DNA from: Escherichia coli | GTDB lineage: Bacteria > Pseudomonadota > Gammaproteobacteria > Enterobacterales > Enterobacteriaceae | Reading direction: 5' to 3' (one strand) | Length of the DNA stretch: 64,000 nt | NCBI RefSeq assembly: GCF_030384885.1 | Contig: NZ_CP128613.1 | In this document: positions 58,693 through 61,738 of the stretch, piece after piece | How positions within the stretch are numbered: position 1 is the stretch's first letter | How the letters are laid out: the number at the start of each line of letters is the position of its first letter | Notes under the pieces: generated by a model | Told to the model about the DNA's origin: nothing | What the model saw: only the letters and a program-made list of their open reading frames with translations | Database searches by the model: none | Program-made: the position numbers and the translations under genes

Positions 58693-60008
58693 GTCAGGCT
58701 AAATCGAACAAAATGGGCGTCGTTCAGTTAACCATACTGACGATGGTCAACATGATGGGCTCCGGCATCATCATGCTGCCGACAAAGCTTGCCGAAGTTG
58801 GGACGATCTCAATAATCTCCTGGTTGGTGACAGCCGTAGGCTCAATGGCGCTGGCATGGGCATTCGCAAAATGCGGTATGTTCAGCCGTAAATCAGGCGG
58901 TATGGGCGGTTATGCCGAGTATGCTTTCGGTAAATCCGGTAACTTTATGGCGAACTATACCTACGGCGTCTCGCTGCTGATTGCTAACGTGGCGATTGCT
59001 ATTTCGGCAGTTGGTTACGGCACCGAACTGCTCGGCGCGAGTTTGTCACCAGTGCAGATTGGTCTGGCAACCATCGGAGTGCTGTGGATTTGTACCGTGG
59101 CTAACTTTGGTGGTGCGCGCATTACCGGGCAAATCAGTAGCATTACCGTGTGGGGGGTCATTATTCCGGTGGTAGGCCTGTGCGTTATCGGCTGGTTCTG
59201 GTTTAGCCCGACACTTTACGTTGATTCCTGGAATCCGCATCATGCACCGTTCTTCAGTGCGGTAGGTTCTTCCATCGCCATGACGCTGTGGGCTTTTCTT
59301 GGTCTGGAGTCTGCGTGTGCGAATACTGATGTAGTGGAAAACCCGGAACGTAATGTGCCAATCGCGGTACTCGGCGGTACGTTAGGTGCGGCGGTGATTT
59401 ATATCGTCTCCACCAACGTGATTGCCGGGATTGTGCCCAATATGGAGCTGGCAAATTCAACGGCACCATTTGGTCTGGCCTTCGCGCAAATGTTCACACC
59501 GGAAGTGGGTAAAGTCATTATGGCGCTGATGGTGATGTCCTGCTGCGGTTCACTGCTTGGCTGGCAGTTCACCATTGCCCAGGTGTTTAAATCTTCATCT
59601 GATGAAGGCTACTTCCCTAAAATTTTCTCCCGTGTAACCAAAGTGGATGCACCGGTTCAGGGGATGTTGACCATTGTGATTATTCAGAGTGGATTGGCAC
59701 TGATGACCATTAGCCCGTCACTGAACAGCCAGTTCAACGTGCTGGTTAACCTGGCCGTGGTGACCAATATCATTCCGTATATCCTGTCGATGGCGGCATT
59801 AGTCATTATTCAGAAGGTCGCCAATGTGCCACCATCAAAAGCGAAAGTAGCAAACTTTGTTGCCTTTGTTGGTGCGATGTACAGTTTCTATGCGCTGTAC
59901 TCATCCGGGGAAGAAGCCATGCTGTACGGTTCCATCGTGACTTTCCTTGGTTGGACACTGTATGGTCTGGTATCACCACGCTTTGAACTGAAAAACAAAC
60001 ACGGTTAA
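58689..60008 (+). CDS. potE: Putrescine-ornithine antiporter
   Basis: 439-aa APC-family transporter MSQAKSNKMGVVQLTILTMVNMMGSGIIMLPTKLAEVG... Confidence 0.97.
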   Translation: MSQAKSNKMGVVQLTILTMVNMMGSGIIMLPTKLAEVGTISIISWLVTAVGSMALAWAFAKCGMFSRKSGGMGGYAEYAFGKSGNFMANYTYGVSLLIANVAIAISAVGYGTELLGASLSPVQIGLATIGVLWICTVANFGGARITGQISSITVWGVIIPVVGLCVIGWFWFSPTLYVDSWNPHHAPFFSAVGSSIAMTLWAFLGLESACANTDVVENPERNVPIAVLGGTLGAAVIYIVSTNVIAGIVPNMELANSTAPFGLAFAQMFTPEVGKVIMALMVMSCCGSLLGWQFTIAQVFKSSSDEGYFPKIFSRVTKVDAPVQGMLTIVIIQSGLALMTISPSLNSQFNVLVNLAVVTNIIPYILSMAALVIIQKVANVPPSKAKVANFVAFVGAMYSFYALYSSGEEAMLYGSIVTFLGWTLYGLVSPRFELKNKHG

Positions 60009-60017
60009 AAAAGCGAA

Positions 60018-60052
60018 ATAAAAAAGGGCGATTGAATGATCGCCCTTTCTGT
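60018..60052 (+). terminator. Rho-independent terminator downstream of potE
   Basis: Hairpin aaaaagggcgattgaatgatcgccctttctgttt. Confidence 0.75.
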
Positions 60053-60089
60053 TTGTTGACAAAGAGTTCGTTATTTATGCCGCATCCGG

Positions 60090-60227
60090 CAGGTGTAGGG
60101 TCCAAACGCGGTCGAACACAGCAACTATTTGCGTAATTATATGAGGCATTTGCGACAAAAACTGGAACAGGATCTCGTCCGCCCCGCCATTTCATTACTG
60201 AAACCGGTATTGGGTATCGGTTTATGC
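60090..60227 (+). repeat. About 138-bp degenerate direct repeat of the kdpE 3-prime coding end (kdpE-tail remnant)
   Basis: By-eye alignment of 60090-60227 with 55663-55800 shows about 89 percent identity in the same orientation (caggtgt.gggtccaaacgcggtcgaacacagc...actgaaaccggtattgggtatcggtttatgc). Confidence 0.85.
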
Positions 60228-60355
60228 TTTGAAAAAAGTGGCAATGTATGGATAAAGTCATTTTTTATTCAAATATAAGGAACTTAATATTTAAAAAATG
60301 TCCCATACAATGCCTCATCATAAATGACACCGTAGCACACAAGGAGCAAGTAGCG

Positions 60356-61006
60356 ATGCGTGAAGTGAGTCAGTTAGTAAATACGGAAGATTCAGCCTGG
60401 CCAATAATCCAGAATTGGTTAAAAGAAGCCACAAACCATGCCGAACTCTTACCGGTTAATAAAGATTTAGCCGAAACCGCACTTTATCAATTACAGGTTA
60501 CAACAAAATCACCGATGGGTGCGCTTGTCTATGGCTCCGGAGGTCTGCTGATTGATAACGGTTGGTTACGCATAGCAGGCTCTGGTCACCCCCGGTTACC
60601 ACGAGATCCAGCAAGTTGGACACAACGCCCTGAATTCGCAAGCGTGCGGGCTTTACCCATCGCCGATGATGTCGCAGGGGGAATTTTTGCTCTTAATGGT
60701 GGCGATCTTGGGGAAGATACTGGCTGCGTTTATTATTTTGCGCCAGATACGCTGAATTGGGAAAGTCTGGAGGTTGGATATTCTGAGTTTCTTCAGTGGG
60801 CATTATCCGGTGATTTAGATACCTTCTATGAAAATGTACGCTGGCCGCAATGGCAAGAAGACGTAATAAAATTATCGGCAACGGAAGCCTTCACTTTCTA
60901 CCCTTTCTTATGGGTACAAAGTGAAGAAGCAAGAACAAGAAAAGTTATTTCGCTTACTGAACTCTGGGAAATGCAGTATCAAATGAAAGAAACAATCACG
61001 CAATAA
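60356..61006 (+). CDS. DUF2625-like hypothetical protein (216 aa), apparently intact
   Basis: ORF with AAGGAG Shine-Dalgarno 9 nt upstream of the ATG at 60356 (the track ORF starts further upstream); position matches the K-12 ybfG region (recalled). Confidence 0.55.
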   Translation: MREVSQLVNTEDSAWPIIQNWLKEATNHAELLPVNKDLAETALYQLQVTTKSPMGALVYGSGGLLIDNGWLRIAGSGHPRLPRDPASWTQRPEFASVRALPIADDVAGGIFALNGGDLGEDTGCVYYFAPDTLNWESLEVGYSEFLQWALSGDLDTFYENVRWPQWQEDVIKLSATEAFTFYPFLWVQSEEARTRKVISLTELWEMQYQMKETITQ

Positions 61007-61046
61007 GACATGTTCAGGTCCGGGTTTCATTCCCGGACTCGCTATT

Positions 61047-61541
61047 TTAATGTGTGTTTATCGCTTTCAATTCTTGCTGGCAATTTTCTGACTGACAGCG
61101 TCGCAACTCAATAATCCCGACATGCATCATCGAGCCAAAAAATCCGCTTTCGCTGACATAATCCTCATTAACTATCGGTCGAGTGCCGGGCTTACCCTGG
61201 CAAATCCTCATAAAAAATGAGGTGTAGCATTGCCATTCAGGATTTAAACCGGTCTTTTCTTGTGCTGACATATCATGAAGATAAGTAAGTTCTTTTTCGT
61301 TCCCGCCTGACAACTGCCAGCGGCGGGTATTATCAGGTAAGTTATCGCCACGGCAATTTGTCTTACACCGGGAAGGCGCAATATTTACCGCAATGCTACC
61401 CGTTAATCCTCTGGTTTTATCTTTAGGGGTCAGTAACCAGTCACCAGCTAATGATGATTGTTCAGGTTGGGCGCATGCTGTCAGTAGTAGTGTGGCGGTA
61501 ATTAATGCCACTCTGACGACCAGACTCCTTTTGGTCTTCAT
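61047..61541 (-). CDS. ybfP: Lipoprotein YbfP
   Basis: MKTKRSLVVRVALITATLLLTAC lipoprotein signal with lipobox LTAC; start taken at MKTKR inside the track ORF. Confidence 0.8.
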   Translation of the reverse strand: MKTKRSLVVRVALITATLLLTACAQPEQSSLAGDWLLTPKDKTRGLTGSIAVNIAPSRCKTNCRGDNLPDNTRRWQLSGGNEKELTYLHDMSAQEKTGLNPEWQCYTSFFMRICQGKPGTRPIVNEDYVSESGFFGSMMHVGIIELRRCQSENCQQELKAINTH

Positions 61542-61592
61542 TTTGAATTCCCTTGAGCTATTCAGTTTGTTGGCAAAGTGCTCGTTGTTCAT

Positions 61593-61694
61593 GCCGGATG
61601 CGGCGTGAACGCCTTATCCGGCCTACAAAATAGGGCAAATTCAATATATTGCACCATCTTCCCAAGCCTGATAAGCGTAGCGCATCAGGCAGTC
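61593..61694. repeat. REP/BIME palindromic elements between ybfP and pgm
   Basis: Sequences gccggatgcggcgtgaacgccttatccggcc and gcctgataagcgtagcgcatcaggc. Confidence 0.8.
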
Positions 61695-61699
61695 ATAAG

Positions 61700-61738
61700 T
61701 AAAAAAGGGCGATCTTCTGACCGCCCTTTTTCTTATTA
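61700..61738 (-). terminator. Rho-independent terminator downstream of pgm
   Basis: Hairpin aaaaagggcgatcttctgaccgccctttttc immediately 3-prime of the pgm stop. Confidence 0.7.

Follow-up and report, generated by a model that had tools for sequence, protein, structure and literature searches.

The DUF2625 gene ybfG of Escherichia coli as a candidate orphan immunity gene against NucA/NucB-type DNase toxins

YbfG and the closest described immunity proteins

The subject of this work is ybfG, a gene of the DUF2625 family located in a 64,000-nt stretch of Escherichia coli DNA (contig NZ_CP128613.1, assembly GCF_030384885.1), which is called the window below; its product was compared with known immunity proteins of bacterial toxins. 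Tdi1 and Tdi2 (Pfam family T6SS_Tdi1_C, formerly DUF1851; PDB structures 8g0k, 8fzz, and 6itw) confer immunity against the Ntox15 (Tde) DNase effectors of type VI secretion systems (T6SS) (Bosch et al. 2023, PMC10470768). They act by inserting into the nuclease core and splitting it. In the Tde/Tdi precedent, orphan Tdi genes are approximately ten-fold more frequent than the toxin genes, and orphan Tdi proteins bind non-cognate toxins with nanomolar affinity and provide protection in co-culture (PMC10470768). The second group consists of the SUKH-1 (SMI1_KNR4) immunity proteins, including YobK (2prv), Lin2918 (2icg), and RhsPI (8bd1) (Zhang et al. 2011, PMC3113570).

We propose, with moderate confidence and on the basis of sequence comparisons, that DUF2625 is a family of immunity proteins against NucA/NucB-type DNase toxins and that E. 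coli ybfG is an orphan copy. DUF2625 proteins would be cytoplasmic and would bind and neutralize the C-terminal NucA/NucB-type DNase domain (DNase_NucA_NucB, PF14040) of polymorphic toxins, which would be delivered by rival bacteria on Rhs, LXG/type VII secretion system (T7SS), PT-HINT, or contact-dependent inhibition (CDI)-type proteins. Since no toxin gene adjoins ybfG in E. coli, the gene is read as an orphan immunity gene, which would shield its carrier from DNase toxins made by others. The gene and its ribosome-binding site are located in the window as follows.

60356..61006, plus strand: ybfG coding sequence for a DUF2625 protein, 216 codons and TAA, intact (list of open reading frames (ORFs), Pfam, NCBIfam, RefSeq)
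60341..60346, plus strand: Shine–Dalgarno sequence AAGGAG, 9 nt upstream of the ybfG ATG, the same in K-12

The ORF begins with the ATG at 60356 and ends with the TAA at 61004–61006, with no internal stop codons. A first-pass annotation, made from the sequence alone, had described an uninterrupted 216-aa, DUF2625-like ORF preceded by an AAGGAG ribosome-binding site and lying between a kdpE-tail repeat and ybfP, and each element of this description was recovered. The Pfam search assigned the protein to PF10946 (DUF2625) with an E-value of 3.1e-87 and 291.4 bits (cut-off 27) over profile positions 2–206 of 207, and the match with NCBIfam NF008494 (PRK11408) scored 509 bits against a cut-off of 278 over positions 1–216 of 216. 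In view of these strong matches, the ORF is not a chance one. A longer in-frame ORF of 252 aa, starting from the ATG at 60248, was considered as the true gene and rejected because the homologues in 44 other taxa all start at M-R-x-L; the position of the ribosome-binding site led to the same decision. The RefSeq genome of strain 2013C-4282, which is 100% identical to the window over 60000–61100, contains an intact "DUF2625 domain-containing protein" (WP_001209504.1) at the equivalent coordinates. Inspection of the YbfG sequence by eye found neither a signal peptide nor a hydrophobic segment.

The DUF2625 family comprises 1,148 clusters at 50% identity (E ≤ 1e-3) and ranges over Bacteroidota, Proteobacteria, Firmicutes, and Actinobacteria. 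Even between phyla, members share 45–55% identity with YbfG, and the nearest enterobacterial relatives outside E. coli are approximately 53–57% identical. In an alignment of 45 family sequences, of which the window protein is one row, YbfG keeps all 27 invariant columns. Four members of the family (P0154, P0157, P0187, and P0239) have tandem DUF2625 repeats or extensions of 130–300 residues that match no Pfam family. The family is mentioned by no paper in the literature searched, and the main text of two foundational papers on SUKH proteins and polymorphic toxins names neither DUF2625 nor YbfG.

The AlphaFold2 model of YbfG, built with the 45 sequences, is confident, with a predicted local distance difference test (pLDDT) score of 89.8 and a predicted template modeling (pTM) score of 0.88. 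A Foldseek search with this model found Tdi2 (8fzz_B) with an E-value of 7e-4 and template modeling (TM) scores of 0.58/0.63. The top structural matches are bona fide immunity proteins; Syd, Knr4, and FBXO3 are also among the matches. The predicted model displays the alpha+beta fold of SUKH proteins, and YbfG is thus predicted to be a small cytoplasmic alpha+beta protein with a SUKH/Tdi-like fold. At the sequence level, residues 90–137 match SMI1_KNR4 below the threshold (E-value 0.018, 16.1 bits vs. a cut-off of 25.4), and a weak match of this kind was found in only 4 of the 45 family members. One protein of the family (P0201) is a fusion of DUF2625 with SMI1_KNR4. A search of PDB sequences with the family profile yielded matches at the chance level only.

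Compared with its nearest counterparts, YbfG shows clear differences. Its sequence identity to Tdi1 and Tdi2 is only 10–14%, and it has no match with T6SS_Tdi1_C (PF08906) at E ≤ 10. The partners of Tdi proteins are Ntox15 domains, whereas the toxins encoded upstream of DUF2625 genes are of the NucA/NucB type (PF14040), and Ntox15 was found in none of the toxins scanned there. In comparison with SUKH-1 proteins, DUF2625 proteins are approximately 80 residues longer, have extra N- and C-terminal elements, and are much more conserved in sequence than is typical of SUKH families. On the proposed reading, YbfG belongs with the SUKH/Tdi-like immunity proteins, a known kind. Anti-phage defense or a phage origin of YbfG was considered and rejected, as there were zero matches in PADLOC or PHROGs.

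Gene order of DUF2625 and NucA/NucB toxins

The link between DUF2625 and DNase toxins is provided by the gene order in several bacteria. Clostridium homopropionicum encodes a 2,288-aa RHS-repeat protein in which the Rhs core motif is followed by a C-terminal DNase_NucA_NucB domain; the DUF2625 gene is located 30 bp further on, and its product is 45% identical to YbfG. In arrays from human oral metagenomes, which also hold Imm26, Tox-ART-HYD1, GH-E/Imm33, and PT-TG cassettes, a homologue of the C. homopropionicum toxin domain is encoded 18 bp upstream of DUF2625. At a second Clostridium locus, an intact DUF2625 gene lies behind a truncated Rhs-NucA/B remnant, and the megaplasmids of Clostridium butyricum carry a NucA/NucB–DUF2625 pair inside arrays of HNH and GH-E toxins.

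A survey from the toxin side was carried out by scanning metagenomes with an alignment of the toxin domain, which gave 80 loci; in 72 of them, the downstream sequence was 500 nt or longer. Of these 72 loci, 27 had a DUF2625 match rated strong (E ≤ 1e-17) downstream of the toxin, on the same strand in every case, and three more had a weak match. In the 27 loci, the opening of the DUF2625 frame falls within a range from 82 nt ahead of the toxin stop codon to 142 nt past it; DUF2625 immediately downstream of the toxin domain was also seen in loci L060, L088, and L093–95 and in C. butyricum. Together with the protein of locus L175, which is ended by the contig edge, 28 strong toxin-linked DUF2625 proteins were obtained, with 27–46% identity to YbfG. 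Because these proteins form 18 clusters at 70% identity, many toxin–DUF2625 pairs are independent of each other. The toxin-linked proteins of L112, L101/L060, and L162 are 42–46% identical to YbfG and belong to the core clade. RHS repeats, LXG, or PT-HINT domains are present in the toxins upstream of DUF2625.

Where no clear DUF2625 gene was present, other genes occupied the downstream position: ComJ (15 loci), SMI1_KNR4-like proteins (9), weak DUF2625 matches (6), and weak Tdi1_C (PF08906) matches (2). ComJ (PF11033), or Nin, the NucA inhibitor of Bacillus subtilis, resembles DUF2625 in being encoded directly downstream of NucA/NucB-type nuclease domains, and this shared position makes it a functional analogue for the same toxin family. 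It is a protein of an unrelated family of approximately 150 aa, in which no sequence similarity to DUF2625 was detected. With ComJ, the slot holds a known nuclease inhibitor, which serves well as a positive control.

Overall, the partner encoded downstream of a NucA/NucB toxin domain is of at least three kinds (DUF2625, ComJ/Nin, or SUKH-1-like proteins), in addition to a few weak Tdi1_C-like and DUF6707 matches. In the enterobacterial genus Rahnella (Enterobacterales), the gene after that of a PT-VENN/NucA/NucB toxin in a CDI array encodes a SUKH-1 protein; the alignment of the DUF2625 profile with this Rahnella immunity protein by hhalign was not significant. Two NucA/NucB nucleases located on long contigs (P0296 and P0313) have no DUF2625 gene downstream.

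The probable sigma-E promoter and the weighing of an immunity role

A sigma-E-type motif precedes the gene.

60279..60305, plus strand: sigma-E-type promoter motif GGAACTT-N15-TCCCA, 51–77 nt upstream of the ybfG ATG

This is the sole match with GGAACTT-N14-17-TCNNA in the 64-kb window, where 0.22 matches are expected by chance. In K-12, ybfG is among the 28 sigma-E promoters identified by rapid amplification of 5' cDNA ends (5'-RACE) (Rhodius et al. 2006, PMC1312014). Upon sigma-E induction, ybfH was upregulated 3.9-fold and ybfG 25.2-fold, the latter being behind only degP in the table (Bury-Mone et al. 2009, PMC2731931). We infer from the sequence that the motif corresponds to the mapped K-12 promoter, and ybfG of the window is probably transcribed from it.

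Several observations weigh against an immunity role with sigma-E expression. The base at 60302, in the -10 region of the motif, is C in the window and T in K-12. YbfG reaches the Pfam cut-off of no named SUKH or Tdi family. With 45–55% identity retained across phyla, DUF2625 is unusually conserved for an immunity protein. The NucA/NucB domain is encoded upstream in only 2 of the 77 species-level DUF2625 loci with a callable gene, which are mostly from Bacteroidota and Proteobacteria, and the neighbors in these loci vary widely, the 142 neighboring genes representing 133 Pfam families. Beside ybfG, neither the window nor the other E. coli loci examined have a toxin gene. Finally, approximately two thirds of E. 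coli genomes are without ybfG and several alleles are frameshifted, so that the gene is dispensable.

Some of these facts would also suit a different role, in which YbfG serves housekeeping or the envelope-stress response as a protein-binding adaptor of the SUKH fold, comparable to Syd, which binds SecY, rather than inhibiting toxins in E. coli, and the toxin-linked relatives are a specialized offshoot. Published K-12 work assigns ybfG to the sigma-E regulon, most DUF2625 genes lie away from toxins among heterogeneous neighbors, the sequence is highly conserved across phyla, and the structural matches include SUKH-fold proteins with non-immunity roles (Syd, Knr4, and FBXO3). However, genuine immunity proteins head the structural matches, core-clade DUF2625 proteins with 42–46% identity to YbfG are themselves toxin-linked, and the patchy distribution, frequent loss, and variable or mobile location fit a housekeeping role poorly. 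A search for a conserved operon partner in the 77 species-level loci also found none. Therefore, we regard this explanation as unlikely. The large genes upstream of DUF2625 in Bacteroidota loci were considered as partners and rejected, as they are housekeeping genes (Na/H exchanger, GMC oxidoreductase, ribosomal protein S1, DEAD helicase, and RimO-like protein).

It is very improbable, in our estimation, that DUF2625 is an enzyme or a small-molecule-binding protein with no relation to toxins. Such a function would agree with the many invariant polar residues of the family (Q47, S52, D67, R72, S76, R83, D104, D105, and N114) and with the glyoxalase, GNAT, and methyltransferase genes that are common neighbors in Bacteroidota loci.

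Alleles of ybfG and the variable segment between potE and pgm

In K-12 MG1655, ybfG (b0691/b0690, NC_000913.3 715947–716597) is annotated as a pseudogene of 651 nt, the same length as in the window, which agrees with the statement in the first-pass annotation that this region is disrupted in K-12. The old names ybfH and ybfG denote two halves of this one gene. The alignment with K-12 recommended there as a search for a frameshift or stop was performed, and it contains no gaps across the ORF; the K-12 translation has one in-frame stop only, at codon 70. The K-12 lesion is thus the nonsense mutation W70 TGG>TAG, and a frameshift was rejected. Two codons distinguish the K-12 gene.

60563..60565, plus strand: codon 70, TGG (Trp) in the window and TAG (amber) in K-12, the nonsense codon behind the pseudogene status of ybfG there
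60680..60682, plus strand: codon 109, GGA (Gly) in the window and GTA (Val) in K-12; this Gly is invariant in the 45-sequence family alignment

The K-12 gene differs from the intact allele of B strains (NEBExpress, WP_001208814.1) in two bases, nt 209 (W70amber) and nt 326 (G109V). Both of these K-12-specific changes are damaging, and they break two positions that are invariant in the family. K-12 would have lost the function of the gene through the amber codon and then through G109V. As G109V affects a family-invariant glycine, repair or suppression of the amber codon alone might fail to restore function in K-12.

When comparing the window with the K-12 pseudogene, the same locus with approximately 96% nucleotide identity can be noted; the ribosome-binding site, the terminator, and the -35 element are shared. 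In addition to W70amber and G109V, nine other amino-acid positions distinguish the window allele from the K-12/B haplotype. The window and B alleles are separated by 20 base differences, 11 of them synonymous and nine non-synonymous, and none of the latter falls at a family-invariant residue. The ratio of non-synonymous to synonymous substitution rates (dN/dS) between these alleles is approximately 0.22 (Nei–Gojobori; two alleles, small counts).

Allele frequencies were determined in 5,426 complete E. coli genomes using 55-mers centered on the codon-70 base, so that every 28-nt megablast seed includes this base. The K-12/B haplotype with TGG was found in 1,284 genomes and the window haplotype in 131, which means that approximately 1,415 of the ~1,780 carriers of ybfG have TGG at codon 70. 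The K-12 amber 55-mer matched 365 genomes, and the 30 matches listed for it, which are laboratory strains of K-12 or genomes of K-12 size, look like K-12 derivatives. Among carriers the intact gene prevails, and RefSeq already annotates it; K-12 pseudogenes with intact counterparts in other strains are a familiar phenomenon, and the intactness here and disruption in K-12 represent an ordinary strain difference. The first-pass annotation had suggested that this strain may retain the ancestral functional form. The low frequency of the amber allele and the two damaging bases that separate K-12 from B support this suggestion, with the qualification that such a form is widespread among carriers. 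Other E. coli lineages have independent ybfG lesions, namely frameshifts (P0030, P0044, P0051, and strain MS1679) and a 5' deletion (P0003).

The gene lies in a variable segment of 1.7 kb with the following features.

60020..60050, no strand: potE-proximal terminator hairpin AAAAAAGGGCGAT...CGCCCTTT, which bounds the variable segment on the left
~60090..60233, plus strand: 3' fragment of kdpE (K-12 pseudogene ybfI), upstream neighbor of ybfG, annotated as an incomplete winged-helix pseudogene
61017..61039, no strand: GC-rich hairpin GGTCCGGG-N7-CCCGGACT in the interval where ybfG and ybfP converge, terminator-like in a consensus scan, identical in K-12
61047..61541, minus strand: ybfP lipoprotein gene, convergent with and downstream of ybfG (RefSeq and K-12 annotation)
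61701..61731, no strand: pgm-proximal copy of the hairpin AAAAAAGGGCGAT...CGCCCTTT, right boundary of the segment, abutting pgm

The gene order of the window (speF, potE, kdpE', ybfG, ybfP(-), pgm(-), seqA(-)) is that of K-12 read from the other strand. In strain 2013C-4282, ybfG is likewise flanked by an incomplete kdpE-like pseudogene and by an opposite-strand homologue of ybfP of 164 aa. A search for Rhs or other toxin genes near ybfG found none within 30000–56500 of the window.

Only 1,770 of the complete genomes match 80% or more of the length of 60000–61100 of the window, and the ybfI-ybfG-ybfP segment is absent from approximately two thirds of E. coli genomes. At least three arrangements can be distinguished. 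In O157:H7 and APEC O1, potE is followed by pgm after 56 bp, and this junction occurs in 3,163 genomes. The form with ybfI-ybfG-ybfP is present in approximately 1,770–1,780 genomes. The third form, kdpE-REP-ybfP-pgm, is without speFL-speF-potE and without ybfG and keeps ybfP; it was found in 246 genomes. The three junction queries leave about 240 genomes unassigned.

Where the segment is absent, the hairpin occurs once, between potE and pgm, whereas the window has two direct copies. Because two direct copies bracket the segment and one copy remains where it is absent, the arrangement suggests that the segment was lost or gained via recombination between the hairpin copies, in either direction. 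In thousands of genomes, the 3' end of kdpE proper shares approximately 90% identity with the kdpE 3' fragment. The real 3' end of kdpE lies on the far side of speFL-speF-potE from the ybfI copy. The gene order hints that the speF-potE operon may have been inserted beside kdpE with duplication of the kdpE tail.

It seems quite unlikely that ybfG, though intact, is functionless, a leftover of an imported segment that is decaying and has so far escaped a disabling mutation in this lineage. In favor of this reading, the segment is missing from most E. coli (the genomes with the potE-pgm and kdpE-ybfP junctions), ybfG has independent lesions, such as the K-12 amber codon and the frameshifts and deletion listed above, and the gene adjoins a kdpE pseudogene fragment. 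However, codon 70 is intact in most carriers. The dN/dS value between the two diverged intact alleles, the absence of changes at invariant residues, and the conservation of the ribosome-binding site, the promoter motif, and the terminator weaken this explanation further.

The hairpin at 61017–61039 is likely the shared terminator of ybfG and ybfP. The latter gene is within the same variable segment, and a functional tie between it and ybfG is not evident. The YbfP protein has no match in Pfam, NCBIfam, PADLOC, or PHROGs; it is annotated with 164 aa, and from an upstream ATG, the ORF reaches 181 aa (61047–61592, minus strand). Palindromic units resembling repetitive extragenic palindromes or bacterial interspersed mosaic elements (REP/BIME) (GCCGGATGCGGCGTGAACGCCTTATCCGGCCTAC and others) are located between ybfP and pgm, at 61590–61700 of the window, and similar units stand in place of ybfG in the kdpE-REP-ybfP-pgm genomes.

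Some DUF2625 genes of other bacteria are found at the edges of mobile elements. In Yersinia massiliensis, the gene is at the edge of an island with DUF932, antirestriction, RadC, CbtA/CbeA, IS110, and nuclease-like defense genes; in Pedobacter frigoris, it is at the edge of a conjugative transposon with RteC, DUF3945, and topoisomerase genes. A 1.9-kb contig (JAIJJM010000630.1) in a metagenome-assembled genome (MAG) of "Collinsella sp." encodes a YbfG protein 96% identical to that of the window; very probably, this contig is E. coli contamination of the MAG bin.

If DUF2625 proteins act as proposed, this uncharacterized family gains a specific, testable function, that of inhibitors of NucA/NucB-type DNase toxins, and one unexplained member of the E. 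coli sigma-E regulon receives a candidate role. A bolder and quite doubtful extension is that envelope damage caused by an attacker's delivery machinery might activate sigma-E, which would then induce the orphan inhibitor of the incoming NucA/NucB-type DNase toxins. If true, this would tie a core envelope-stress regulon directly to interbacterial immunity in approximately one in three E. coli strains; K-12, on which the definition of the sigma-E regulon rests, would be naturally deficient in this defense. K-12 is a natural ybfG null, unlike B strains and many wild isolates, which is relevant where K-12 is used as prey in competition assays or K-12 ybfG knock-outs as a neutral pseudogene control.
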